IMG/VR virus record: IMGVR_UViG_2703718832_000008
Location: 1 to 16,991 of that record
Direction: 5' to 3' (one strand)
DNA: 16,991 nucleotides
Source of the DNA: a virus
Lineage: Duplodnaviria > Heunggongvirae > Uroviricota > Caudoviricetes
Shown here: positions 1 through 16,532 of the stretch, piece after piece
Position numbering within the stretch: the first letter of the stretch is position 1
Layout: each line of letters opens with the position of its first letter
Translations under genes and position numbers: made by a program
The notes under the pieces: model-generated
What the model saw: the letters and a program-made list of their open reading frames with translations, nothing else
Told to the model about the DNA's origin: nothing
Database searches by the model: none

Positions 1-885
1 TTACTTTGCAATGAGATCGGGGTCAACTTCGCTAACCCGGCATCGTTTTGACCGGTTGCCCGTCTTTCTTTTTTTCACTTTCGCCAGTTCTTCCGCGGAG
101 TAATGCGACGCGACATCCAGCCGTCGAAGCCCCATTTTGATGTACTCGCTGTTGATCTCAATACCAATGAATTTTCGTCCGCTGGCGATGGCTACGGCAC
201 CGGTAGTAAAGCTACCGGCAAACGGGTCGAGAACGATATCGCCTGGGTTGGAAGAGGCGAGAATAATGCGTTTCAGTAAGGCTTCCGGTTTTTGCTTCGG
301 GTGGTTCTCATATTCATCCATTAAATAACGCACTCGCGGAAAATCCCAGACGTTACCCGGTACTTTTTGATGATTGTATGGCTGTGGAGGATTTTTGCGA
401 TAATCGATCAACGCGCGCTGCGATCCGGTTTTGGCTTCTACCAGAATAGCATCACCGTTGAATGTGTAGTTCTTTGCGTCTTTCACCATCATCAGGATGG
501 GTTCGTACATGGAGCCGTAGTGTTTTTTCGCCTGTACTCCAGAACTGTCATATGACCAGACGATGCGACTTTTGATGGTAAAAAGCTTGCGGCACTGGAG
601 ATCGATAAAGGGCATGTTTTCCGTACTGTTCATAATGTACATGCTGCCCTGCTTTTTCAGAACGCGGTGGCACTCTGCAATCACTTCAAACAGCCAGTCG
701 ATAAATAGATCTTCTTTCCAGGCTTCGATCAGACCATCAAAATTTTTACCGATGTTATACGGTGGGTCGGCAAAGATCAGATCGACGCTTTCAGTAGGTA
801 GCTTTTTAAGTTCGGCAAGGGCATCACCGTGAATAATGGTCTTAGCTTCATTACCAAACCGGGTCGGTTCACATCCTGTTCTCAT
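1..885 (-). CDS. yhdJ: DNA adenine (N6) methyltransferase YhdJ; complete, stop at window positions 1-3
   Basis: 294-aa ORF with the DPPY motif (FADPPYNIG) and a C-terminal FxGSFTTG S-adenosylmethionine-binding motif typical of N6-adenine/N4-cytosine methyltransferases; sequence matches my recollection of enterobacterial YhdJ. Start chosen at ATG 883-885 (MRTGCEP...) with AAGGGAG ribosome-binding site 6 nt upstream, rather than the GTG at 889-891 used by the ORF track. Confidence 0.9.
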   Translation of the reverse strand: MRTGCEPTRFGNEAKTIIHGDALAELKKLPTESVDLIFADPPYNIGKNFDGLIEAWKEDLFIDWLFEVIAECHRVLKKQGSMYIMNSTENMPFIDLQCRKLFTIKSRIVWSYDSSGVQAKKHYGSMYEPILMMVKDAKNYTFNGDAILVEAKTGSQRALIDYRKNPPQPYNHQKVPGNVWDFPRVRYLMDEYENHPKQKPEALLKRIILASSNPGDIVLDPFAGSFTTGAVAIASGRKFIGIEINSEYIKMGLRRLDVASHYSAEELAKVKKRKTGNRSKRCRVSEVDPDLIAK

Positions 886-909
886 GGTCACTCCCTTTGT
901 GACACCTAT

Positions 910-3267: not shown

Positions 3268-3552
3268 ATGCAAAATATCACCTTTACCCCGCCAAATCCT
3301 GAGCAGCGCCGCACCCTTTTAGAAGAGTACGGCTTTAAGTTCGACCGTCGAATTCGTGAAGAAGAATGTAGCGAGATCACCAGCCTTTCCCGTTCCAGCC
3401 GCTGGAAAATGGAGCAGCAAGGTCGATTCCCGCCACGCTGCCACTTTGGTCGTAACAGCTGCGCCTGGCTTCTTTCTGATGTGCTCTGGTGGGTTCGTAA
3501 TCCGCCTGCAGTAGAGAACGTCAATAACCCGTACAGCCGCAAATCTGCTTAA
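3268..3552 (+). CDS. alpA: AlpA-family phage transcriptional regulator (excisionase-like helix-turn-helix)
   Basis: 94 aa; region RIREEECSEITSLSRSSRWKMEQQGRFPPRCHFGRNSCAWLLSDVLWWV matches the AlpA/Vis-type helix-turn-helix as I recall it; GGAGG ribosome-binding site at 3259-3263. Confidence 0.88.
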   Translation: MQNITFTPPNPEQRRTLLEEYGFKFDRRIREEECSEITSLSRSSRWKMEQQGRFPPRCHFGRNSCAWLLSDVLWWVRNPPAVENVNNPYSRKSA

Positions 3553-3572: not shown

Positions 3573-4379
3573 ATGGAAAAAATAACTGCCTTGGCTGGCA
3601 GCGGCCAAACTCAATCCGAAACCAGCCAGAAAGATATTTCCAGCGATAATTTTGCTGCGCGAATCCCTGTAACCATGAGCAAGATTGGCGGGAAAGAAAC
3701 CCAGTCTGTAAGCGGACGTAAGCTGCATACGTTTCTGGCTGTAGGGCGAGACTTTACCACCTGGATGAAAGCACGCATCAAACAGTATGGGTTTGTTAAA
3801 GGGGTTGATTATGTAATTGTTGAAGATTTGAGCACCCCAAAACGGGGGAGCGCAAAATCTCGCCAACAAGTCGAGCACGATTACATTGTTAGCCTGAATA
3901 TGGCTAAAGAGCTTTCTATGGTTGAGCGCAACGCGCAAGGCAAGATGGCCCGCCAGTATTTCATCGACTGTGAAGAACGTCTGCGCCGCGTAGCACCAGA
4001 GGAACATGAGGCGGCGTTGTTGGGCTGGCGTAAAAATCGTGTAGCTGCCTGCGAAGATCATAAGAGTATGGCCGATGCAATGAAGGGCTATATCGAGCGC
4101 ACCGGCGACAGGCAGCACGGCTTTGCCTACAGCAATGAATGCTCGTTCCTGAATAGCCTTGTGCTGGGTATGCACCCGCGAGTGTGGGCGAAACAGAAAG
4201 AAATCCCGGTTAAGCAGGTGCGTGACCATATGAACGCCGATCAGCTCGCGCTGCTGGCTTATCTGGAAAGCCGTGATTGTGCTCTGCTGGATCTTGATAC
4301 CCGTACAGCAACCCGTAAGGCGAAACTCACCGAACTGGCACAACGCTGGCTGGTGAAGCGTGTTGGAGGTGCTGAGTGA
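3573..4379 (+). CDS. Phage antirepressor-like protein (AntA/AntB N-terminal domain)
   Basis: 268 aa; segment SGRKLHTFLAVGRDFTTWMKARIKQYGFVKGVDYV fits the AntA-domain pattern (LH.FL.V...F..W...RI..YGF..G.DY). Only 20 bp downstream of alpA, so probably co-transcribed. The start could instead be the internal Met at about 3675. Confidence 0.7.
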   Translation: MEKITALAGSGQTQSETSQKDISSDNFAARIPVTMSKIGGKETQSVSGRKLHTFLAVGRDFTTWMKARIKQYGFVKGVDYVIVEDLSTPKRGSAKSRQQVEHDYIVSLNMAKELSMVERNAQGKMARQYFIDCEERLRRVAPEEHEAALLGWRKNRVAACEDHKSMADAMKGYIERTGDRQHGFAYSNECSFLNSLVLGMHPRVWAKQKEIPVKQVRDHMNADQLALLAYLESRDCALLDLDTRTATRKAKLTELAQRWLVKRVGGAE

Positions 4380-5163: not shown

Positions 5164-5444
5164 CACGGCGCATGTAACAAAAGCAACGCCCCGGAGTGCG
5201 GGAACACTGCCGAGGCGTCTAACCACCAACGTTAATAGGAGTAACGCTATGGCTATGCCGCAGTGTAACCAAACTCATCCTAAAAATCGCGTATTTATCT
5301 TTTTGGCTTTAAATCGTGCCGACATGCAGAGCAGGCCACATCGTGAAGTTATTACCGCCGTCAGTGAGCGGGAAGCACGTAAGCTGCTAGTTGGCCGTTT
5401 TATTTTGGTTTTTGCAGGACGCTTACCAGCCAAGGAGATTTATC

Positions 5445-5954
5445 ATGGCTAAATTAACCAATAAATATTTAAAAGAAATTTTAGAATACAGCCCAGAATC
5501 TGGGGTGTTTATTTGGAAAGTTTGTCGTGGTACTACAAAGGCAGGGGATATAGCTGGCAGTATCAAAGTAAGAGGGTATTTAGATATTAAGATTAATAAG
5601 AAGCTATATAAGGCTCATAGGCTCGCATGGTTTTATATGTATGGAGTTTGGCCCGCTAATCTAATTGACCATATTAATGGTAATCGCAGTGATAATCGGT
5701 TGTGTAACTTGCGAGAGGCCACTCACAAAGAAAATTGCAGAAATCAAAGGATGTATAAAAATAACAAGTCAGGAGTAAAGGGAGTTAACTGGAATAAAAC
5801 AGGAAGAAAATGGCTGGCTGCGTGTGCTGTTGACGGGAAAAGATATCACCTAGGAATGTTTGAAGATATTTCAGAAGCAGAGAAAACTATTAAAGATTTT
5901 CGTGAGAAATATCATGGGGAATTCGCCAAGCATGAAGTGACCGGGGAGTTATAA
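5445..5954 (+). CDS. HNH endonuclease with C-terminal AP2 DNA-binding domain (homing-endonuclease-like)
   Basis: 169 aa from ATG 5445 (AAGGAG ribosome-binding site 7 nt upstream). HNH_3-type motif HRLAWFYMYGVWPANLIDHINGNRSDNRLCNLREAT, then AP2-like SGVKGVNWNKTGRKWLAACAVDGKRYHLGMFEDISEAEKT. Visibly AT-rich compared with downstream genes. Confidence 0.8.
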   Translation: MAKLTNKYLKEILEYSPESGVFIWKVCRGTTKAGDIAGSIKVRGYLDIKINKKLYKAHRLAWFYMYGVWPANLIDHINGNRSDNRLCNLREATHKENCRNQRMYKNNKSGVKGVNWNKTGRKWLAACAVDGKRYHLGMFEDISEAEKTIKDFREKYHGEFAKHEVTGEL

Positions 5955-6353: not shown

Positions 6354-6597
6354 CTTTGTAAGCGATGCGCGGCACGGGAAGCGCGGAGAGTTCAAATTGC
6401 CGCTGTTTTGTGAACTGACTGCAGAAGGGCAGAGTCACATCACCTTTGCCCTAAAGTTTGCCCCCGAGTCTGTGGCTGTGTTCCATCCCGATTCGGGAGA
6501 AATATCTCACTGGCTCAGCCGCGGAAACGAGATTATCGACATTTACGGTTGCTATGCCGTCTTTCCTCGCAATGGCATTAGGGAGGAACAGCAATGA
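6343..6597 (+). CDS. Hypothetical small protein (84 aa, GTG start)
   Basis: GTG at 6343 preceded by GGGAGG 6 nt upstream; overlaps the previous stop and ends in an ATGA overlap with the primase start. The ORF-track start at 6253 would run inside the previous gene and has no ribosome-binding site. Confidence 0.45.
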   Translation: MQNDFVSDARHGKRGEFKLPLFCELTAEGQSHITFALKFAPESVAVFHPDSGEISHWLSRGNEIIDIYGCYAVFPRNGIREEQQ

Positions 6598-9284
6598 GCC
6601 GCGCAATTGAGATTATCCGTGAAGTTAAGCGCCGAGCTGCCGGAAGCTGGGAAAGCCTACTTCCTCAGTGCGGGGTGACGGTTCCGCCGAAAGGCCGTCA
6701 CGGCCCATGCGCCATCTGTGGTGGATCTGACCGATTTCACTACATTGACGACCACGGCGGCGGCGAGTGGCATTGTCGCCAGTGTGACGAGCCAAATCAC
6801 GGCGACGGTCTGGATCTCATTGCCAGATCTCAGGGCATTACCATAACCGCTGCGGCGCAGAAAGTATCCTCTGTGCTGGGTGTTGATGCCCGGACACCGG
6901 AACCGAAGCCAGCCAGAGAGAAGCCTCAGACGGATATCGCCGGGAAAGTTGCGGCGCTGGTTGCTAAAGCCTCTCCGGGGCAGTCTGCTTACCTTGCATC
7001 AAAGGGGCTTCAATGCCCCTTCCCGATGCTGTCCGATGGGTCGCTGCTGCTGGTGCTGAAAAACGGTGCTGGCGCGACGACAGGCGCACAGGTGATTAAG
7101 CCAGATGGCAGTAAGCGGCTGGTGGCCGGAACGGTAAAGAAAGGCTCTTTTTGCGTGGTTAATTCCGGTGAAACGCCGGAGACGGTGATTATCGCCGAAG
7201 GACTGGCAACGGCGCTTTCGGTTCAGCAGTTTCGCCCAGATGCGACAATTATCACAGCGATTGACGCCGGGAATTTGCTGTCAGTTGCGCAGGTGATGCG
7301 ACAGCGTTACCCGGATGCGCAGATCATCATCGCCGCAGATAACGATATTAAGCCTGGCGAACCAAACACGGGTAAATCAGCCGCAGAAAAAACCGCTAAA
7401 GCTGTCTCTGGCTGGGTAGCTTTACCTCAGTCTGAGGAAAAGGCCGACTGGAATGATTTTCACCAGCAACACGGGCTGGAAGCAGCCGCAGCAGCATTTA
7501 ATGATTCGATGTACCAGCCGGAGGGCGAAAAGGTGGTGGTAAAACTTAAGTCTATTGACGGCGGTAAAAAAGAGCAAAAATCAGCTCTGCAAGGTGACGA
7601 ACTGAAACCACGCGTGGAGAGCCGTAACGATGGCTTGTACTGGATTACGCCAAAGGTGGACAAGGACAGCGGAGAAATCATCAATAACGAAGCGTGGCTT
7701 TGTTCGCCTCTTGAGGTAGTTGGTTCAGGTAGTGACGGGGCAGAACGCTATCTTGTTTTGCGCTGGCGTTCGCCGCGTGGCCACGAAGATATTACCAGGG
7801 CGATCCCTTGCGCTGATGTTGGAGAGCGTGAGGGATGGCGCTCACTTAAAGCTGGAGGGGTTAACGTGACCACTAAAAACACCTTTCGTGCCATTCTGGC
7901 CGATTGGCTGCAGCAGTGTGGATCTGGTCAGGAATGGATTATCACTCATACCACTGGCTGGCATAATGGGGCATATATCATGCCTGATGGCGAAGTTATT
8001 GGTGATCCAGAGACACCCATTCTCTTTAATGGTCGCAGCGCTGCATCTTCCGGTTATGCCGTTTCTGGTACGGCTGAGGGCTGGCGGGATTCAGTGGCTT
8101 ATCTGGCCGGTGGCAACCCATCAATGATGCTGGGAGTGGCGGCGGCATTATCCGCGCCGCTTATTGGGCTGGTGGGTGCTGATGGTTTCGGTGTCCACTT
8201 GTTCGAGCAGTCGAGCGCCGGTAAGACCACTACAGCTAATATTGCGAGCAGTCTGTGGGGAGAGCCGGATGCTCTGCGCCTAACGTGGTACGGTACTGCG
8301 CTTGGTATCGCTAACGAAGCGGAGGCGCATAACGACAGTCTGTTACCGCTGGATGAAGTGGGGCAGGGGAGCAGCGCCAAAGACGTTGCCACTTCGGCAT
8401 ACACCTTGTTTAACGGTGCTGGAAAGCTGCAGGGAGCCAAAGAGGGCGGCAATCGGGAGTTGAAACGTTGGCGCACTGTAGCAATCAGTACCGGGGAAAT
8501 GGATATCGAGACGTTTCTTTCTGCTGGTGGGCTAAAAGTTAAGGCAGGCCAGTTGGTTCGCCTGCTGAATATCCCTATGGAGAAATCGACGGCCTTTCAT
8601 GGCCTGCAGAACGGCAAGGCTCATGCTGATGCACTGAAGCAGGCATGGATTGAAAATCACGGTGCAGCGGGCCGAGAGTGGGTTAAATGGTTGGCGGCTC
8701 ACCAGAAGGAAGCTAAACAGGCCGTACATGACGCCCAGACGCGCTGGCGCGGACTCATTCCGGCTGATTATGGCGAGCAGGTGCACCGCGTGGCAGAACG
8801 CTTTGCAATCCTTGAAGCTGCGCTGGTGACTGGTGCATCAATCACCGGATGGGATGAACAGGCCAGCCGTGATGCTATCCAGCATAGCTTTAATGCCTGG
8901 GTGAAAGAGTTCGGAACGGGAAATAAAGAGCACCAGCAGATCATCGAGCAGTGCGAGGCGTTTCTTAATGCTTATGGTCTGAGCCGGTTCGCCCCTTTGC
9001 CTTATGATCCTGCAAGCCTGCCAATCAGTAATCTTGCCGGGTATCGTAAGCGTAAGAGCAACCATGATGATGCGCCCATGGTGTTCTATACATTCCCTGC
9101 AACGTTTGAGAAGGAGATAGCGCAGGGATTTAATGCTAGGCAGTTTGCCCGTGCGCTTGCCGCTGCCGGTTTGCTCTCTGAGCCATCAAGTGGGAGAGGA
9201 TATCAACAGAAATCACCGCGAATTGATGGGCGCCAAATCAACGTTTATGTACTTCAACAAGTTGCAGAAGAAGGGGCGGAATAA
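6594..9284 (+). CDS. Primase-helicase (zinc-ribbon + TOPRIM primase + P-loop NTPase domains)
   Basis: 896 aa. N-terminal Cys/His cluster (CAICGG...HCRQC); TOPRIM-like IIAEGLATALS and IIAADND; Walker A SSAGKTT and Walker B-like LLPLDEV in the C-terminal half. Sits immediately upstream of the iteron origin. Confidence 0.9.
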   Translation: MSRAIEIIREVKRRAAGSWESLLPQCGVTVPPKGRHGPCAICGGSDRFHYIDDHGGGEWHCRQCDEPNHGDGLDLIARSQGITITAAAQKVSSVLGVDARTPEPKPAREKPQTDIAGKVAALVAKASPGQSAYLASKGLQCPFPMLSDGSLLLVLKNGAGATTGAQVIKPDGSKRLVAGTVKKGSFCVVNSGETPETVIIAEGLATALSVQQFRPDATIITAIDAGNLLSVAQVMRQRYPDAQIIIAADNDIKPGEPNTGKSAAEKTAKAVSGWVALPQSEEKADWNDFHQQHGLEAAAAAFNDSMYQPEGEKVVVKLKSIDGGKKEQKSALQGDELKPRVESRNDGLYWITPKVDKDSGEIINNEAWLCSPLEVVGSGSDGAERYLVLRWRSPRGHEDITRAIPCADVGEREGWRSLKAGGVNVTTKNTFRAILADWLQQCGSGQEWIITHTTGWHNGAYIMPDGEVIGDPETPILFNGRSAASSGYAVSGTAEGWRDSVAYLAGGNPSMMLGVAAALSAPLIGLVGADGFGVHLFEQSSAGKTTTANIASSLWGEPDALRLTWYGTALGIANEAEAHNDSLLPLDEVGQGSSAKDVATSAYTLFNGAGKLQGAKEGGNRELKRWRTVAISTGEMDIETFLSAGGLKVKAGQLVRLLNIPMEKSTAFHGLQNGKAHADALKQAWIENHGAAGREWVKWLAAHQKEAKQAVHDAQTRWRGLIPADYGEQVHRVAERFAILEAALVTGASITGWDEQASRDAIQHSFNAWVKEFGTGNKEHQQIIEQCEAFLNAYGLSRFAPLPYDPASLPISNLAGYRKRKSNHDDAPMVFYTFPATFEKEIAQGFNARQFARALAAAGLLSEPSSGRGYQQKSPRIDGRQINVYVLQQVAEEGAE

Positions 9285-9978: not shown

Positions 9979-10003
9979 ACCCCTGTCTCTGATGGGGGTT
10001 TTC
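9979..10003 (+). terminator. Weak intrinsic terminator candidate
   Basis: CCCC/GGGG stem with 10-nt loop followed by TTTTCTTT, about 40 nt after the preceding stop codon. Confidence 0.3.
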
Positions 10004-10173
10004 TTTATATTTTTCATGTATATCTTGAAGAGTGGCACTCAGACGTGAGCCGCCACTGGCCGTTAAGTCAAGCTGTAGCGAGTACAGCCTGCGAGAGGCA
10101 GAAAAAGATTTAACGGCCTCCCCTCCAAGCGCTGGTTTCACGTCTCTACGTTAATTGATACGGAAACCACTCC

Positions 10174-11340
10174 ATGAAGAAACTACTCGAATTACGCCAG
10201 CAGAAAGCCGCACTCAAAACACAGATGCGTTCCATGCTGGACAAAGCCGACACCGAAAAGCGCAGCCTGAACGAAGAAGAGGGCAAAAAGTTCGACGAAC
10301 TCCGCGCCCAGGCTGATGCGCTTGAAGTTGAAATCACCCGCCTTGAAGCCGTCGCCGACGATCAGCGCAATCTGCCTGGTACTTCCGTCGAAGGTGAGCC
10401 AGTAAGCAACGACGAGCTGCGCCACTACATCATGACAGGTGATACCCGTTCTCTCTCCACGCTGGTGCAGGCTGACGGCGGTTATACCGTTATCCCTGAG
10501 CTGGACAAAGAGATTATGCGCCAGTTGCAGGATGATAGCGTGATGCGTTCCATCGCAACGGTGAAGACCACCAAAACCAACGAATACCAGAAGCTGGTAT
10601 CTGTGGGCGGCACTACTGTTAATCGTGGTACCGAAGGTGAGGCACGTACCGAAACCAGTACGCCGAAGATGGAGCGCGTTGATATCAAACTCAACCCGAT
10701 CTACGCCTACCCGAAAACCACTCAGGAGATTCTCGACTTCTCTGAGGTGGACATTCTGGGCTGGCTGTCTTCTGAAATCGCCGACACCTTCACCGCTACC
10801 GAAGAGAGCGACTTTGTGAACGGCGACGGTGATAAAAAATCCAAAGGGTTCCTGTCTTACCCTCGCGCTGTCACTGCCGACAAAACCCGTCCGTTCGGTA
10901 CGCTGGAGAAGATGGAGGCGGCTGACGTTTCCTCTGATGGCCTGATCGACCTGCTGTATAAGCTGAAAGCCAAATACCGCAAAAACGCCGTATGGGTGAT
11001 GAACTCCAACACCGCCGCCAAACTGCAAAAGCTGAAAAACGGCAACGGAGATTACATCTGGCGCGATCGTCTGGTTGCCGGTTCTCCCGATACGCTGCTG
11101 GGCCGTCCTGTTCAGTATCTGGAAACCATGCCGGATGCGGATGCAGGTAAAGCGTTCCTCGCGGTAGGCGACTTCAAGCGCGGCTATTTCATCGTGGATC
11201 ACACCACTGGCGTGCGTACCCGTCCTGACAACATCACCGAACCGGGTTTCTACAAGGTGCATACCGATAAGTACCTGGGCGGCGGTGTGGTGGACTCCAA
11301 CGCCATCAAGGTGCTTGAGCTTTCAGGCTCCGGTTCCTGA
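10174..11340 (+). CDS. Major capsid protein, HK97 fold, with N-terminal coiled-coil (delta/scaffold-like) domain
   Basis: 388 aa; N-terminal roughly 100 residues are charged and coiled-coil-like, the remainder resembles HK97-family major capsid proteins; the long antisense ORF 10192..11262 is a shadow. Confidence 0.92.
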   Translation: MKKLLELRQQKAALKTQMRSMLDKADTEKRSLNEEEGKKFDELRAQADALEVEITRLEAVADDQRNLPGTSVEGEPVSNDELRHYIMTGDTRSLSTLVQADGGYTVIPELDKEIMRQLQDDSVMRSIATVKTTKTNEYQKLVSVGGTTVNRGTEGEARTETSTPKMERVDIKLNPIYAYPKTTQEILDFSEVDILGWLSSEIADTFTATEESDFVNGDGDKKSKGFLSYPRAVTADKTRPFGTLEKMEAADVSSDGLIDLLYKLKAKYRKNAVWVMNSNTAAKLQKLKNGNGDYIWRDRLVAGSPDTLLGRPVQYLETMPDADAGKAFLAVGDFKRGYFIVDHTTGVRTRPDNITEPGFYKVHTDKYLGGGVVDSNAIKVLELSGSGS

Positions 11341-11953: not shown

Positions 11954-13189
11954 ATGTGGAATATCTGGCCGTTTGGCCGTAAGTCTGAACCCTCAGAGCA
12001 GCGCAGCATGACCATTGATGAATTTCTGGCGATGGCAGGGATTCCAAATACCGGATCAGGCGAGTATGTGTCTGCGGGTACTGCGGAATCTCTGCCGGCG
12101 GTCATGAACGCCGTATCAGTTATCAGTGAGGCGGTGGCAACAATGCCCTGCTATCTCTACCGCGTCCGTAATGATAATGGTCGTGAGGCGCGAGAATGGC
12201 TGAGTAATCACCCGGTGGATTTTCTCCTGAACGAGCAGCCGAACGACTGCCAGACGCCTTATCAGTTTAAACGCACGATGATGCGCCATTGTCTGCTGAA
12301 TGGTAACGCCTATGCGGTGATCCAGTGGGGCCGCGACGGCCAGCCGCAATCCCTGCACCCGTATGCGCCGGGGGCGGTTGTTCCTGAGCGTATCGGCCAG
12401 CATAAGTACAAATACACCGTTACAGAGCCGTTTACCGGGGCTGTGCGCACCTATCTACAGGAAGAGATTCTGCACCTGCGTTACTCCACCGATGATGGCT
12501 TTCTGGGGCGTTCGCCTATTACTACGTGCCGTGAGGCGCTGGGGTTAGGTCTGGCCCAACAGCGCCACGGTGCCAGCATTATGAAAGATGGCATGATGGC
12601 GGCGGGCGTCGTCACTACTGCTGAATGGCTCGACAGCGTGAAGGGTAAGCAGGCTCTGGACGCACTGGAGCGCTACAAAGGTGCCAGAAATGCCGGGAAA
12701 ACGCCGATCCTTGAAGGTGGCATGGACTACAAGCAGCTTGGCATGAGCAATCAGGATGCCGAATGGCTGGCGTCGCGCCGGTTCTCCATTGAAGACATTG
12801 CCCGCATGTTCAACGTGTCGCCCATCTTCCTGCAGGAATACAGCAACAGCACCTACAGCAATTTCAGCGAAGCGAGCCGCGCCTTTCTCACCATGACCAT
12901 GCGCCCGTGGCTGGCGAACTTCGAGCAACAAATCAAATCTGCTTTGCTGGTGGCCTCTCCGGTTCCGGGAACCCGTTATCAGGTGGAGTTTGACTCTGCT
13001 GACCTTCTCCGTGCCACACCTACCGAGCGTTACGCCACTTATGAGCGAGGCATTAAGAACGGGATCATGAACCCGAACGAAGCCCGTGAGCGCGAGGGGA
13101 TGCCGCCGCGTGAAGGTGGTGACGAATTCAGCCAGGCATGGAAGCAGGAAGTGAAGATCAGCAAAGACGGCAAGGAAGGTGACGCATGA
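11954..13189 (+). CDS. Portal protein, HK97 family
   Basis: 411 aa; start 1 nt after the protease stop; size and sequence character consistent with HK97-type portal proteins. Confidence 0.9.
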   Translation: MWNIWPFGRKSEPSEQRSMTIDEFLAMAGIPNTGSGEYVSAGTAESLPAVMNAVSVISEAVATMPCYLYRVRNDNGREAREWLSNHPVDFLLNEQPNDCQTPYQFKRTMMRHCLLNGNAYAVIQWGRDGQPQSLHPYAPGAVVPERIGQHKYKYTVTEPFTGAVRTYLQEEILHLRYSTDDGFLGRSPITTCREALGLGLAQQRHGASIMKDGMMAAGVVTTAEWLDSVKGKQALDALERYKGARNAGKTPILEGGMDYKQLGMSNQDAEWLASRRFSIEDIARMFNVSPIFLQEYSNSTYSNFSEASRAFLTMTMRPWLANFEQQIKSALLVASPVPGTRYQVEFDSADLLRATPTERYATYERGIKNGIMNPNEAREREGMPPREGGDEFSQAWKQEVKISKDGKEGDA

Positions 13190-13524: not shown

Positions 13525-13814
13525 CAGCAGAAATCACCCTGGAAGAAGCAAAGCTGCATTGCCGTATTGATGATGATTATGAAGACACGCTGATACAGGC
13601 GTACATCGATGCGGCGCTGGAGGTTTGCCAGAAGCATATCGGCAAGCGGTTTGATAACGGGCTGGAGTTTACGCCAGCTATCAAGATTGGCTGTCTGATG
13701 TACGTATCTCAGCTGTACGAGTACCGCACGATGATTGGTGATACCGACGCCAAAGAGATACCGATGGCTGTCTCTGCGTTGTGGTCTGTCTATCGTGATG
13801 TGGGGGTGTACTGA
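13521..13814 (+). CDS. gp6-like head-tail connector protein
   Basis: 97 aa; N-terminus ITLEEAKLHCRIDDDYEDTLIQAYIDAA is the usual signature of gp6-like connector proteins; ATGA overlap upstream. Confidence 0.85.
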   Translation: MTAEITLEEAKLHCRIDDDYEDTLIQAYIDAALEVCQKHIGKRFDNGLEFTPAIKIGCLMYVSQLYEYRTMIGDTDAKEIPMAVSALWSVYRDVGVY

Positions 13815-14257
13815 TGCCGTGGCAACCACTACGCCGGTGCAATGAGCCGGGATGTAATAAACGGGTGAAGTCTGGCAAGTGTGACGAGCATAAGCGGGAT
13901 GCCCGCCGACAAAGCGACAGCCGAAGAGGTACGCGAACAGAGCGTGGTTACTCCAACCGCTGGGGCGAATACCGTCGTCATTTTCTAAAAGCTAATCCGC
14001 TGTGTGTCCATTGTCTCAAGGCTGGCGTCTATGCATCGGCAACTATCGTCGATCACATCATCCCTATCGAGGGTGAAGCTGATGTGCTGTTCTGGCCCGC
14101 CAGTAATCACCAGTCGTTATGCGCTGCCTGTCATGGACGGAAGACAACCACAACAGACCCGGTGACGAAGCAGCAGCGTAAAGCCGGTAAGTTCCGCGAG
14201 CAGGAAGAAGCAGCACGTCATCGCACCGACTGGATCTATGAGGCAAACAATGACTGA
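13814..14257 (+). CDS. HNH endonuclease associated with the terminase
   Basis: 147 aa; Cys-rich N-terminus, HNH motif DHIIPIEGEAD...NHQSLCAACH; located directly upstream of terS as in cos-type HK97-like packaging modules. Confidence 0.9.
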   Translation: MPWQPLRRCNEPGCNKRVKSGKCDEHKRDARRQSDSRRGTRTERGYSNRWGEYRRHFLKANPLCVHCLKAGVYASATIVDHIIPIEGEADVLFWPASNHQSLCAACHGRKTTTTDPVTKQQRKAGKFREQEEAARHRTDWIYEANND

Positions 14258-14402
14258 GCAGGAACAGCAGCGGCTGATTAGTGGGCTGATAAAGCAGCGC
14301 GAGGCATGGCAACCAGCCAGACAGAGAGCGCATAAGAAGCCCGTAGCAAAGCGCATGAGCCAGCGTGACCGGGAGCTTATGGAATGCTTTCGCAACCGCT
14401 GA
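14250..14402 (+). CDS. Possible small basic protein (50 aa); uncertain
   Basis: ATG overlaps the HNH stop by 8 nt; the ORF is below the length cut-off of the supplied track; product is Q/R/K-rich; no supporting motif. Confidence 0.3.
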   Translation: MTEQEQQRLISGLIKQREAWQPARQRAHKKPVAKRMSQRDRELMECFRNR

Positions 14403-14409
14403 CAGGCCG

Positions 14410-14530
14410 AATGGACGGGGTGGGGGAGGTTTTCAGGACAAACCCCTCTCAGCGAGGAACCACCCGCCCCCTCAAATTTTTACGCACGGTGATTTTTTTG
14501 AAAATAAAACAGACAGGAAAACAGTAAGTT
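14410..14530. other. Candidate cos / packaging-recognition region between HNH and terS
   Basis: GC-rich G-tract GGGGTGGGGGAGG (14417-14429) and C-tract CCACCCGCCCCCTC (14460-14473) with partial dyad symmetry, followed by T-runs; cos-type phages with HNH-TerS-TerL place cos here. Confidence 0.4.
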
Positions 14531-14887
14531 ATGGCAAGACCACCCAAACCGCCCGCCTACCTTGATGAAATCGCGGCGCAGCAGTGGAAAGCAAAGGCGA
14601 AGCAGCTGGCGGAGCGCGGTGATCTGACGCCTGCCGACTGGAACAACCTTGAGCTGTATTGCGTCAATTACTCGATGTACCGCAAAGCCGTGGAAGACCT
14701 TGCCACGCGGGGATTCAGCATAGTGAACAGCCAGGGCGGTGAGAGCCGTAACCCGGCACTGAGCGCAAAAGCGGATGCCGAAAAAATTCTCATAAAAATG
14801 TCGTCGCTGCTGGGCTTTGATCCGGTAAGCCGCCGCCGTAATCCGGTAGAAACGGAAGAGGAGGACGAGCTTGACCGTCTGGAATGA
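14531..14887 (+). CDS. terS: Terminase small subunit, P27 family
   Basis: 118 aa; N-terminus MARPPKPPAYLDEIAAQQWK and overall size match P27-family small terminases. Confidence 0.85.
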   Translation: MARPPKPPAYLDEIAAQQWKAKAKQLAERGDLTPADWNNLELYCVNYSMYRKAVEDLATRGFSIVNSQGGESRNPALSAKADAEKILIKMSSLLGFDPVSRRRNPVETEEEDELDRLE

Positions 14888-16532
14888 TTACGCAAACGCC
14901 ATTAAATCGGGTGAAATTCCGGCCTGTAAGCGCGTAAAACAGGCCGTCGAGAGGTACTTTTCAGACCTGAATGACCCCCGTTATGAGTTCGATACGGCGA
15001 CCGTGGAGCGGTTTATTGCCTTCTCCCGGCTCTGCCCACACGTCAAAGGCCCGCTTAGGGGCCAGCCAATAGAGCTGGAACCGTGGCAGCAGTTCGCCTT
15101 TGCTAACCTGCTGGGCTTTAAGGTCAGGGAGTCAGGCCGCCGTAAGTACAGCAGCGCCTTTATTGAGGTGCCGCGCAAGAACGCCAAATCAACCGTAGCC
15201 GCCATGCTGGCTAACTGGTTTCTGGTAATGGAGAAGGGCCAGCAGGATATCTACACGGCGGCGGTAAGCCGGGATCAGGCCCGAATCGTGTTCGACGATG
15301 CCCGCCAGATGTGCCTGCTGTCAAAACCGCTGAAAAAGCGCGTCAATATCCAGGCGCATAAGGTCATTTTTCCGAAGAGCAACAGCCTGTTAAAGCCGCT
15401 GGCGGCGAAAGCGGCCACCATTGAAGGGACTAACCCCAGCCTGGCGATTGTCGATGAATACCACCTTCACCCGGATAACGGCGTTTATTCCGCCCTCGAG
15501 CTGGGTATGGGCGCACGTCCGGAGGCGATTTTGTTCGCTATCACTACCGCCGGGAGTAACGTTGTCTCTGCCTGTAAGCAGCATTATGACTACTGCTGTC
15601 AGATTCTGGCCGGGGAGGAGGGCAACGATTCGCTGTTTGTACTGATCTACGAGCTGGACGACGAAAGCGAGGTTGAGCAGCCTGAAATGTGGATCAAGGC
15701 TAACCCTAACCTGCATGTGTCCGTTGACGCAGCGAAACTAGAATCCACTATCCAGAAAGCCCGGGGTATACCGTCGCAGTGGGTGGAAATGCTGACCAAG
15801 CGTTTCAATATCTGGTGTCAGGGCTCCACTCCGTGGATGGGAGCCGGCGCATGGGATGCCTGTGCGCTCGAATATACCGAAGAAGATCTGTCCGGGATGG
15901 AGTGTTACGCCGGATTTGACCTGTCCTCAACCAGCGATATTACCAGTGTGAGTTACGCTTTCCCGTTTGAACGCGAGATCAGGCTTCTTACCCGGCACTA
16001 TCTGCCCGAAGCACAACTACTTAACGTTGCTAACAAAAACCGCGCCATCTATCGGCAGTGGGTAAAAGCGGGCTGGATACGCACCACCCCCGGCGACTGT
16101 ATTGACTATGATCGCATCCGTGACGATATCCTGCGCGACGCTGAAATATTCAATATCCGGCTGGTGGGCTTTGATACGTGGAACGCGACACACTTGCGAA
16201 CCCAGTTACAGGGGGCTGGCCTCGATGTGGAGCCGTTCCCGCAAACCTATCTGAAATTCAGTCCGGTAGCGAAATCTTTTGAGGTTTTTGTTAACCGCAA
16301 GGTGGTGCGCCATCGTGGCGATCCGGTTCTGGCCTGGGCGATTGGTAACGTGGTGATGGAGTCCGATGCCAACGCCAATATCAAACCTAACAAAAAGAAA
16401 TCCTCCAACAAGATAGACCCGGCGGTTTCTGCACTCATGGCGTTCGGCACATTCCTGGCAGAACACGAAGATTTTGCTTTCGATATGAGCGACAGTCACA
16501 AAGAGCGACTGGCTTTATTTAATGGGATTTGA
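14871..16532 (+). CDS. terL: Terminase large subunit
   Basis: 553 aa; ATPase P-loop-like PRKNAKST, nuclease-like C-terminal half; apparent TTG start at 14871 with GAGGAGGA ribosome-binding site, overlapping the terS 3' end by 17 nt. Confidence 0.92.
   Translation: MTVWNDYANAIKSGEIPACKRVKQAVERYFSDLNDPRYEFDTATVERFIAFSRLCPHVKGPLRGQPIELEPWQQFAFANLLGFKVRESGRRKYSSAFIEVPRKNAKSTVAAMLANWFLVMEKGQQDIYTAAVSRDQARIVFDDARQMCLLSKPLKKRVNIQAHKVIFPKSNSLLKPLAAKAATIEGTNPSLAIVDEYHLHPDNGVYSALELGMGARPEAILFAITTAGSNVVSACKQHYDYCCQILAGEEGNDSLFVLIYELDDESEVEQPEMWIKANPNLHVSVDAAKLESTIQKARGIPSQWVEMLTKRFNIWCQGSTPWMGAGAWDACALEYTEEDLSGMECYAGFDLSSTSDITSVSYAFPFEREIRLLTRHYLPEAQLLNVANKNRAIYRQWVKAGWIRTTPGDCIDYDRIRDDILRDAEIFNIRLVGFDTWNATHLRTQLQGAGLDVEPFPQTYLKFSPVAKSFEVFVNRKVVRHRGDPVLAWAIGNVVMESDANANIKPNKKKSSNKIDPAVSALMAFGTFLAEHEDFAFDMSDSHKERLALFNGI

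Follow-up and report, generated by a model that had tools for sequence, protein, structure and literature searches.

The window, by which we mean the whole stretch of 16,991 nt, carries genes in the order int, AlpA, Toprim/DUF927 primase, capsid, protease, portal, head closure, connector, HNH, TerS, and TerL, and none of the ORFs scanned in it had a tail or lysis Pfam match. In published Proteobacterial capsid-forming PICIs (cf-PICIs), int-alpA-replication is followed by capsid-protease-portal-connectors and then by hnh-terS-terL (10.1101/2022.09.08.507074), and the modules of the window follow this order. The distance from int (1156) to past terL (16532) is approximately 15.5 kb, in agreement with the size of cf-PICIs (approximately 10–18 kb), and the right end of the island lies outside the window. 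The prototype cf-PICI, EcCIEDL933, has the same gene content and order (Alqurainy et al., bioRxiv 10.1101/2022.09.08.507074). Judged by gene content and order, the window is a cf-PICI-like island. It is a variant different from EcCIEDL933, and a fragment recovered with EDL933 as host was 87% identical to it over the HNH-terS region. It has been known that cf-PICIs use their own HNH, TerS, and TerL for exclusive packaging, and the same set is present in the window as far as the genes tell. The cited cf-PICI papers assume or observe cos packaging and give no cos sequence or cut positions.

Three packaging genes are encoded on the plus strand. The first (13814..14257, with its TGA stop at 14255-14257) codes for an HNH endonuclease, a packaging-associated nuclease, which matches Pfam HNH (E 7.5e-07), phrog_144 HNH (E 2.9e-39), and the HNH endonuclease of PDB entry 5h0m (E 2.2e-14); the same gene is annotated as HNH in near-identical Escherichia coli loci. 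The second, terS (14531..14887), encodes a small terminase of the P27 family (Pfam Terminase_4, E 1.4e-25; TIGR01558 sm_term_P27, E 6.4e-19), for which a PDB sequence search gave no match. The third, terL (14871..16532), encodes a large terminase of the HK97 class that contains Pfam TerL_ATPase and TerL_nuclease domains and matches PDB 6z6d over residues 45-535 (E 4.2e-43). The depositors named this entry only "Terminase large subunit"; we take it to be HK97 TerL, presumably the entry behind the crystal-structure paper on that protein. The crystal structure of HK97 TerL is reported in PMC9410871. An HK97-class TerL and a P27/HK97-type TerS are the terminase proteins of HNH-dependent cos sites of the P27/SfV/HK97 type, which are located between the HNH gene and terS-terL, and the gap between HNH and terS in the island occupies this position. 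The same HNH/cos/terS layout is found in P27, SfI, HK97, phi644-2, and Kita.

The gap from the HNH stop to the terS ATG (14531) is 273 nt long, of which only 14403-14530 (128 nt) is noncoding. The initial annotation had described in this gap a short ORF on the HNH stop and a GC-rich region with a G-tract and a C-tract flanked by T-runs, and all of these elements are indeed present. The G-tract GGACGGGGTGGGGGAGG is located at 14413-14429 and the C-tract CCACCCGCCCCC at 14460-14471, with T-runs at 14430-14433, 14477-14481, and 14493-14499 (T7). Against 50% GC in the window as a whole, 14403-14475 is GC-rich (64%) and 14476-14530 is GC-poor (29%). No tandem repeats were found in the gap, and direct repeats in the region are limited to two short pairs (10–11 nt, two copies each). 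When the single sequence was considered, none of the gap motifs was individually rarer than in shuffles; we judged the element to be real because it is conserved across relatives and homologous to mapped phage cos sites.

The short ORF (14250..14402, plus strand) encodes a 50-aa protein (MTEQEQQRLISGLIKQ...) and overlaps the HNH gene by 8 nt. A GAGG Shine-Dalgarno sequence (14240-14243) is located 6 nt upstream of its ATG (14250). The protein matches phrog_3173 over the full length (E 1.8e-17, residues 1-50 versus profile positions 1-57 of 57), and a sister type of this ORF has a PHROG match at 2e-27. Among 183 distinct relatives, the ORF was detected in 119, where its peptide occurs in 69 variants, and it is absent from the Xenorhabdus, Photorhabdus, and Gilliamella relatives. 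P27, a complete phage, also has no such ORF between HNH and cos. Because many relatives do not have it, the 50-aa gene is dispensable for this cos type in general.

These absences might also be taken to mean that the ORF is not a gene and that its conservation comes from cos or another DNA-level function, especially as PGAP left it unannotated in the closest E. coli locus, the stop codon is lost in some variants, and the median pairwise dN/dS of 0.42 indicates only moderate constraint. On the other hand, dN/dS is below 1 in 97.7% of pairs, third codon positions are the most variable, and the pattern M-[TN]-E...L...L...R-[DE]-R-[DE]-[LVI]-x-[ED]-[CA]-[FM]-R-N-R is retained across lineages whose DNA has strongly diverged. 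Together with the full-length PHROG matches, the Shine-Dalgarno sequence, the start overlapping the HNH stop, and the annotation as a hypothetical protein in two loci (L002 and L003), these observations make a noncoding origin of the conservation improbable. The ORF that the initial annotation had listed as possible is a genuine gene, translationally coupled to HNH, whose product is modeled as a basic two-helix protein.

In the AlphaFold model of this protein (pLDDT 79), the helices comprise residues 3-28 and 38-48. The model had no significant Foldseek match in BFVD, the sequence had no Pfam or NCBIfam match, and every homolog is named "hypothetical." The idea of a split TerS was rejected, as the protein does not resemble the N-terminal arm that longer TerS proteins have. 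Our best guess, made with low confidence, is that it may be an accessory packaging or DNA-binding factor.

Conservation was analyzed across many genera, with 181 distinct loci that range from Escherichia to Xenorhabdus and Gilliamella. Two conserved blocks without 3-nt periodicity were observed, 14417-14443 (mean identity 0.86) and 14456-14509 (0.91), whereas the neighboring spacers have identities of 0.58–0.65; the corresponding values for first and third codon positions of terS are 0.92 and 0.68. Both blocks match the first codon positions of terS in their degree of conservation. The first block contains the G-run (14413..14429), a proposed upstream cos subsite, and the subsequent TTTTCAGGACAAA segment (14430..14442), which varies between genera (AAAGACAAA, AATGACAAA, CAAAGAAA) and in which the GACAAA columns mostly have identities of at least 0.9. 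A variable spacer follows (14444..14455; mean identity 0.58, entropy 1.35 bits, similar to third codon positions), which shows no covariation with the G-run. The second block consists of the putative nicking core GGAAC-CACCCGCCCC-CTCAAATTTTTACGCAC (14456..14487) and an A/T-tract (14488..14509).

A BLAST search with the core led to a feature annotated as "cos-site" in the Stx2e phage phiP27 (P27; NC_003356, misc_feature 21806-21815, CGCCCGCCCC), which, as in the island, has an HNH gene on one side and a P27-family terS on the other. The segment GGAAC-CACCCGCCCC-CTCAAATTTTTACGC of the island aligns base for base with this site (GGGAC-CGCCCGCCCC-GTCAAATTTTTACACC), with the cos of SfI (GGAC-TGCCCGCCCC-GTCGTTTTTTTATACC), and with the record ends of the Burkholderia phages phi644-2 (GGGAC-CGCCCGCTTC-GTCAAATTTTCACGCC) and phi1026b. 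Local-alignment z-scores, computed against 500 dinucleotide shuffles, were 8.5 for P27, 7.7 for each Burkholderia phage, and 4.0 for SfI; the observed score was reached by none of the 500 shuffles for P27 and the Burkholderia phages and by 2 of 500 for SfI. The core is homologous to mapped or annotated cos sites of the HNH-dependent type.

The P27 10-mer differs from that of the island by one base, and the P27 flanks, GGGAC and GTCAAATTTTTAC, are nearly identical. In SfI, the 10-nt cos TGCCCGCCCC was mapped by sequencing the ends of particle DNA as a gap relative to the prophage (PMC3636060). The cos of SfI/SfV has the same aligned position and the same length as that of the island and is identical at 8 of 10 bases, whereas the left flank of SfI after the cut, GTCGTTTTTTTATACC, differs. 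SfI and SfV are complete lambdoid phages, and their TerS has approximately 39% identity to the island protein in an alignment that covers two thirds of its length. The phi644-2 and phi1026b records, from complete phages of Betaproteobacteria, end with ...GGGACCGCCCGCTTC and begin with GTCAAATTTTCACGC / GTCAAATTTTCACGCC, and the last four bases of their cohesive end differ from the island. Reportedly, phi1026b and phiE125 have 10-base 3' extensions 3'-GCGGGCGAAG-5', the complement of CGCCCGCTTC.

We consider with good confidence that 14403-14530 is the cos site of a cf-PICI-like satellite, of the HNH-dependent P27/SfV/HK97 type. The initial annotation had already named this gap as the likely cos site, which is borne out by the homology of the noncoding block to annotated or mapped cos sites between HNH and terS. 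As the block lies directly upstream of terS, and a T-run comes after its minimum-free-energy fold, in which the G-run and the C-tract are paired, it might instead serve mainly as an expression element of terS-terL (promoter, terminator/attenuator, or mRNA leader structure), with the packaging site elsewhere. However, neither a sigma-70-like promoter nor a terminator-like site was detected in 14258-14530, and the gap had no Rfam match at E up to 1; it is neither an intrinsic terminator nor a member of a known RNA family. In addition, its folding energies equal those of shuffles, its arms do not covary, and the same sequence serves as cos in P27 (annotated) and SfI (mapped) and forms the record ends in phi644-2 and phi1026b. 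We therefore regard expression as a very unlikely main role of the block.

Since the core aligns with the reference cos sites and a relative's contig lacks exactly the corresponding 10 nt, the cos site is predicted to yield the 10-nt 3' cohesive end CACCCGCCCC (14461..14470), the top strand being nicked at 14470/14471 and the bottom strand at 14460/14461. Both predicted termini (14460 and 14471) lie within the interval 14410-14500 in which the initial annotation had expected them. The contig in question, IMGVR_UViG_3300022664_000095 (15,518 nt, metagenomic), is from a close relative; it starts at the equivalent of 14471 with CTCAAATTTTTACGC and finishes at the equivalent of 14460 with ...AAGGCAC, and the 10 nt that it lacks are present in integrated relatives. 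The 10-nt gap of SfI has the same signature. LR881103, a particle-derived, linear, and incomplete deposit, misses approximately 69 nt across the same point. The evidence for physical ends thus consists of one metagenomic contig of unknown library chemistry and one incomplete deposit, both from relatives. Among all fetched loci checked, only L103/L207 and LR881103 end at the site. In a metagenome-wide scan, the left-end 30-mer retrieved 26 loci, in each of which the site is internal, and no second contig started there; the site is also internal in two Logan contigs of approximately 15.8 kb. A cohesive-end length of 10 nt is supported by comparison with the contig gap, P27, and SfI. As for the polarity, we infer a 3' overhang by analogy with HK97 (PMC9410871, PMC11331095) and from the fact that the 10 nt are lost and not duplicated.

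Many PICIs and SaPIs are packaged by the pac mechanism (background in 10.1101/2022.09.08.507074), and the island might likewise use headful packaging, in which case the region would be at most a pac recognition site without defined ends. Several observations argue against this: the TerL is of the HK97 cos class, an HNH gene adjoining terS is a hallmark of HNH-dependent cos phages, the DNA of cf-PICI particles forms concatemers via cohesive ends (10.1101/2025.02.11.637232), and the unit-length contig of the relative has ends that flank the 10-nt gap. We consider headful packaging of this island extremely improbable.

HK97 shares the HNH/cos/terS/terL arrangement and a GC-rich cohesive end with the island. 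Its DNA has 10-nt 3' overhang ends and a TerS site at +15 to +29 (PMC9410871, PMC11331095), although the overhang is given as 10 nt in one passage and 12 nt in another of the HK97 papers, and cleavage is stimulated by the HNH protein gp74. At the sequence level, the similarity is marginal (z 2.3, reached by 17 of 500 shuffles), so that only the architecture is common; the cohesive end CGCCGCCAAA has 5 of 10 bases in common with the island, and the TerS of HK97 is longer and 16% identical to that of the island. Gordonia phage Kita likewise shares only the architecture and has no sequence-level similarity (z -0.4). Streptococcus thermophilus phage CHPC873 (Firmicutes) was discarded as a comparison, its record end being duplicated over 63 nt and not cos-defined.

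The cos of lambda (cosQ-cosN-cosB) follows the same logic, in that a nicking site is combined with an upstream element and with a TerS site on the side that is packaged. It has a 12-nt 5' overhang and R sites for gpNu1, and involves IHF. The island region is not a cos of the lambda type: it has no repeated R-type sites, its TerS belongs to the Terminase_4/P27 family, its overhang is expected to be 3' and 10 nt long, and an HNH partner is required.

In the island, the predicted top-strand nick follows the end of the G-run by 41 bp, and the equivalent G-run ends 41–42 bp upstream of the top-strand cut (-42 or -43) in HK97, HK106, P27, SfI, phi644-2, phi1026b, and Gordonia phage Kita, the distance being 41 bp (-42) in P27 and 42 bp (-43) in HK97 and the two Burkholderia phages. 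In helical turns, this spacing corresponds to about four for the top-strand nick and three for the bottom-strand one.

The initial annotation had seen partial dyad symmetry between the G-tract and the C-tract, and GGGGTGGG and CCCGCCCC are indeed complementary at 7 of 8 positions. In several relatives, base pairing is also possible between the 3' part of the G-run and the segment that follows GACAAA (for example GAGGTTT/AAACCTC and GGCATT/AATGCC). The nucleases might then recognize a DNA hairpin or cruciform as the functional unit, in which the G-tract pairs with the C-tract or the G-run with the C-rich segment that follows it. However, the folding energies are no better than those of shuffles (z -0.47 for DNA and -0.04 for RNA), and the symmetry does not exceed what chance would give. 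The arms showed no covariation in a chimera test with 85 distinct arm combinations, in which native left-arm/right-arm pairs folded no better than between-lineage chimeras. In addition, the C-tract changes (CCTGCCCC, CCGCCTCC, CCCCCTCC) while the G-run stays constant, and compensating changes are thus absent. With shuffle-level folds and no covariation, the hairpin or cruciform was rejected, and we give it very little probability. The C-tract is the cohesive end itself, and the G-run is a conserved block of its own, set at a constant distance.

It is possible, although we propose it only tentatively, that the G-run represents an obligatory second subsite, not yet described, in every HNH-dependent cos site, with the basic 50-aa protein as a lineage-specific accessory factor acting on it. 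Such a subsite could be a cosQ-like termination signal or a docking site for HNH/TerL. In one Xenorhabdus relative, the G-run is expanded to (GGGGTA)x5. The G-run might also form a G-quadruplex on the unwound strand, for which the Xenorhabdus expansion may be compared.

The A/T-tract GGTGATTTTTTTGAAAATAAAA (14488..14509, +18 to +39) is near-invariant in relatives and is a predicted TerS-binding (cosB-like) site. The minimal TerS site of HK97 is +15 to +29 and needs a G followed by an A-tract (PMC11331095). The element GATTTTTTT (14491-14499), also near-invariant across relatives, is located at +21 to +29 in the island and at +22 to +30 in HK97, and the TerS site of the island should, by comparison with HK97, lie around it. 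With only 16% identity to HK97 TerS, the island TerS also misses part of the N-terminal arm, and therefore this assignment is an analogy. The terS ATG is at +61 from the predicted cut in the island, compared with +45 in P27, +50 in HK97 and phi644-2 (+46 to +50 for phi644-2 and phi1026b), and +56 in Kita.

From about +17, the sequence of P27-type phages departs from that of the island (P27 GCGAAATTAAAAATTTC vs. island GGTGATTTTTTTGAAAATAAAAC). As the nicking core is nearly identical to that of P27/SfI-type phages, any specificity most likely resides downstream of this point. The initial annotation had also expected the site to differ from that of the helper phage. This is supported for HK106, the published helper of the prototype cf-PICI, whose cohesive end is CGCCGCCAAA rather than CACCCGCCCC and whose flanks differ as well, but it does not extend to uniqueness of the nicking core, which the island has nearly in common with P27/SfI-type phages. 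These comparisons suggest a modular site, in which the core is common with P27/SfI-type phages and the TerS-proximal A/T-tract differs from both these phages and the HK97-type helper.

Because a cos site of a type already mapped in P27, SfI, and HK97 is an expected feature of such an island, our results fill in an expected detail, now placed to the base, and do not overturn current understanding. cf-PICIs move from one species to another in capsids of their own, which are filled only with the DNA of the island and fitted with borrowed tails. The cos sequence and cut positions provide a minimal cis element for packaging plasmids or cargo into cf-PICI particles, a marker of cf-PICI termini in virome data, and a means of asking where packaging exclusivity resides.

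A possible course of packaging is as follows. After excision and replication, the P27-family TerS of the island would recognize the concatemer at the A/T-tract near GATTTTTTT, as TerS does in HK97. The HK97-class TerL and HNH would then introduce staggered nicks, giving the 10-nt end CACCCGCCCC at the position indicated by homology and contig ends, probably with 3' polarity. The G-run approximately 43 bp upstream would act as a second conserved subsite, probably for the terminal cut or for positioning HNH/TerL. Packaging would proceed rightwards from terS through the att junction and HNH to the next cos, with a unit length of approximately 15–16 kb. Linear records of 15.5 kb and 16.5 kb from relatives fit this length.

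The gap between the packaging HNH gene (13814–14257; stop codon 14255–14257) and the gene for the P27-family TerS (118 aa, 14531–14887) contains a 50-aa ORF (ATG at 14250, with GAGG 6 nt upstream; end at 14402) and a noncoding remainder, 14403–14530. The short ORF, G-tract, C-tract, and T-runs described in the initial annotation are all present: the G-run GGACGGGGTGGGGGAGG lies at 14413–14429, the C-tract CCACCCGCCCCC at 14460–14471, and T-runs occur within 14403–14530, T7 at 14493–14499 among them. GC content drops from 64% to 29% at ~14475. Within the window alone, these motifs were no rarer than in shuffled sequences. A short BLAST search with the core gave a match in phage phiP27 exactly on an annotated "cos-site" feature, the 10-mer CGCCCGCCCC, which is located between the HNH gene and terS of P27.

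With the 10-mer in the outer brackets, the junction reads GGAAC[CACCCGCCCC]CTCAAATTTTTACGCAC in the window, GGGAC[CGCCCGCCCC]GTCAAATTTTTACACC in P27, CGGAC[TGCCCGCCCC]GTCGTTTTTTTATACC in Shigella phage SfI, GGGAC[CGCCCGCTTC]GTCAAATTTTCACGCC in Burkholderia phages phi644-2 and phi1026b, and ATGAC[CGCCGCCAAA]GTTTGAATTTAACGC in HK97 and HK106. The 10 nt of SfI were determined by experiment, as bases missing between the sequenced ends of particle DNA when compared with the prophage (PMC3636060). In phi644-2, phi1026b, HK97, and Gordonia phage Kita, the closing bracket marks where the linear record physically ends. Local-alignment z-scores against 500 dinucleotide shuffles were 8.5 for P27, 7.7 for both phi644-2 and phi1026b, 4.0 for SfI, 2.3 for HK97, and −0.4 for Kita. 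On these scores, homology to the P27 and Burkholderia groups is solid and homology to HK97 marginal, and with Kita only the architecture is shared. In the window, the terS ATG is 61 nt inside the left end, compared with 45 to 56 nt in the comparison phages. Because the block aligns with the annotated P27 and mapped SfI cos between HNH and terS, the earlier proposal of a packaging site here holds: the gap very probably contains a cos site of the known P27/SfV/HK97 type, which is HNH-nuclease-dependent.

Its location is the one expected in a known class of satellites, the capsid-forming PICIs (cf-PICIs). In the cf-PICI papers searched (including 10.1101/2022.09.08.507074 and 10.1101/2025.02.11.637232), cos packaging is assumed or observed, and we found no cos sequence or cut positions, so predicting the site to the base adds a little to what they give. 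Leads with some upside are limited to the G-run, with its fixed distance from the cut, and the small protein.

Relatives provide evidence on physical ends. Contig IMGVR_UViG_3300022664_000095, of cf-PICI size (15,518 nt), starts with CTCAAATTTTTACGCACGG (window 14471 onward) and ends with ...GGTTTTCAGGACAAAACCCAAGCCGCAAGGCAC (equivalent of 14460). Integrated relatives have C[AG]CC[CT]GCCCC between those two points, and the contig lacks exactly these 10 nt. During library end-polishing, 3' overhangs are trimmed off and 5' overhangs are filled in, so a 10-nt gap is the signature that a linear molecule ending in 10-nt 3' cohesive overhangs would be expected to leave, assuming an end-polished library. 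The SfI cos was mapped by the same signature, with 10 nt missing at the ends. LR881103 ("Escherichia phage vB_KppS-Ant"), a linear, particle-derived GenBank record of 16,548 bp from an induced prophage, is labelled as a phage and is a cf-PICI-like element; its start and end correspond to window 14509 and 14439, respectively, with ~69 nt around the same point missing. Particle DNA of cf-PICIs is reported to concatemerise via cohesive ends (He et al., 10.1101/2025.02.11.637232). No further contigs starting at the site were found in the metagenome scan, so direct physical-end evidence for the predicted cut is thin. Right after terL, LR881103 has a 765-aa ORF annotated as "tail length tape measure protein", an unusual gene in a satellite that has no tail. 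The record of Streptococcus phage CHPC873 (NC_070673) has an identical 63 nt at both ends, with a CCCCCGCCCCC run; these duplicated ends look like assembly overlap and not defined cos ends.

A TerS-anchored search yielded 80 viral contigs and 66 loci from species-representative genomes, the latter spanning Enterobacter, Klebsiella, Citrobacter, Kosakonia, Serratia, Erwinia, Pectobacterium, Providencia, Photorhabdus, many Xenorhabdus, Gilliamella, and Frischella; further loci came from a pattern scan. In the alignment of 181 distinct upstream regions, mean identity to the window was 0.91 (entropy 0.37 bits) in 14456–14509 and 0.86 in 14417–14443, with 0.58 and 0.65 in the spacers 14444–14455 and 14510–14530; terS codon positions 1, 2, and 3 gave 0.92, 0.95, and 0.68. 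The two blocks showed no codon periodicity. Compared with the codon positions, these identities indicate that both noncoding blocks are under purifying selection as strong as that at first codon positions.

The G-run is one of two blocks conserved across relatives; in the window it ends 41 bp upstream of the predicted top-strand nick, at −42 (counting 14471 as +1). A G-run of 13–17 nt ends 41–42 bp upstream of the top-strand cut (−42 or −43) in 8/8 elements (the window, HK97, HK106, P27, SfI, phi644-2, phi1026b, and Kita), which span Gammaproteobacteria, Betaproteobacteria, and Actinobacteria. The dyad symmetry suggested between the G- and C-tracts did not stand up, folding being no better than that of shuffled sequence (z = −0.47 as DNA, −0.04 as RNA). 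In addition, the G-run showed no covariation with the C-tract or the following segment among relatives. A G-run/C-tract hairpin is thus disfavoured, and, given the lack of covariation, the G-run is more likely a protein-recognised subsite. In the non-subscription literature searched on HK97-type and HNH-dependent packaging (including PMC11331095 and PMC9410871), we found no discussion of the G-run. Upstream of terS in Xenorhabdus hominickii, the G-run has grown into a canonical G-quadruplex-type repeat, (GGGGTA)x5, with the remainder of the cos core unchanged.

TerL (14871–16532) matched PDB 6z6d (E = 4e-43), which we take to be HK97 TerL, and the HNH protein matched phage packaging HNH families. 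In HK97, the TerS site is 15 bp (+15 to +29), with G and then an A-tract recognised, the HNH protein gp74 stimulates TerL cleavage, and the ends are 10-nt 3' overhangs, 12 nt in one passage of PMC9410871 (PMC11331095; PMC9410871). The stretch GATTTTTTT, nearly invariant among relatives, occupies +21 to +29 in the window versus +22 to +30 in HK97. From this HK97-like placement and near-invariance we propose that TerS would bind 14488–14509, that staggered nicks would fall at 14470/71 on the top strand and 14460/61 on the bottom strand, and that a unit genome would be packaged rightward. Among these elements, direct support is limited to the cut position; TerS binding and overhang polarity are suggested by analogy with HK97. 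Identity between the window TerS and its HK97 counterpart is 16%, and the window protein is missing ~35 residues of the N-terminal arm that the phi644-2, Kita, and HK97 proteins have; the HK97 arm participates in DNA recognition.

The prototype cf-PICI, EcCIEDL933, has HK106 as its published helper. The HK106 cos is identical to that of HK97, has 5/10 cohesive-end bases in common with the island, and differs in the flanks, which supports, for this helper, the expectation that the two sites would differ. The nicking core of the island (−15 to +16) nearly matches that of P27/SfI-type phages, with divergence only from ~+17, suggesting that specificity is most likely set by the TerS-proximal tract.

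The 50-aa ORF, initially listed as possible, is a real gene: it matched phrog_3173 over its full length (E = 1.8e-17), occurs in 119/183 distinct relatives as 69 peptide variants with several divergent subtypes, and has a median pairwise dN/dS of 0.42. All subtypes keep the C-terminal pattern ...R-[DE]-R-[DE]-[LVI]-x-[ED]-[CA]-[FM]-R-N-R. Some records annotate it and others leave it unannotated. The predicted model has a long helix (3–28) and a short helix (38–48), with pLDDT of 79; no significant fold match or domain match was found, and comparison revealed no resemblance to a TerS N-terminus. Since relatives in Xenorhabdus, Photorhabdus, and Gilliamella share the cos blocks but not this ORF, and P27 also lacks it, the protein is not a general requirement of P27/SfV/HK97-type cos. 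Loss of the stop or frame in some variants extends the reading frame into the G-run and the cos core, for products of 61–80 aa (Logan SRR31547387 contig, gene 10001–10243; proteins P0005 and P0020).

Gene content and order of the window match those published for Proteobacterial capsid-forming PICIs (10.1101/2022.09.08.507074; 10.1101/2025.02.11.637232). ORF listing and Pfam scans identified a tyrosine integrase (1156–2379), a DUF6387 protein, and AlpA (3268–3552). By Pfam, the early region also has an AntA/AntB-type antirepressor-domain (AntA-like) protein (3573–4379) and an HNH_3 protein (5391–5954), the latter being the second HNH of the island and unrelated to the packaging HNH. Pfam further assigned a Toprim/DUF927 primase-helicase (6594–9284), major capsid (10174–11340), S78 prohead protease, portal (11954–13189), and head-closure and connector proteins before the packaging HNH, and a DUF3892 protein after TerL. 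ORF listing and Pfam scans detected no tail or lysis genes in the window. An HNH-to-terS region near-identical to that of the window is present in 21/5426 complete E. coli genomes, where the annotations name an HNH endonuclease and a P27-family small terminase within islands bearing an integrase. In E. coli QL57EC, HNH-cos-terS is 99.4% identical, the early region is different, and the chromosomal site, between gcd and hpt, also differs; another island, L002, adjoins fis, and the left flank of the window is a DNA methylase gene (1–891, minus strand). With the same packaging module on another backbone and at another site, the module seems to be transferred from one island backbone to another. 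A 356-aa ORF (10192–11262, minus strand) is antisense to nearly the entire major capsid gene and is probably a composition effect.
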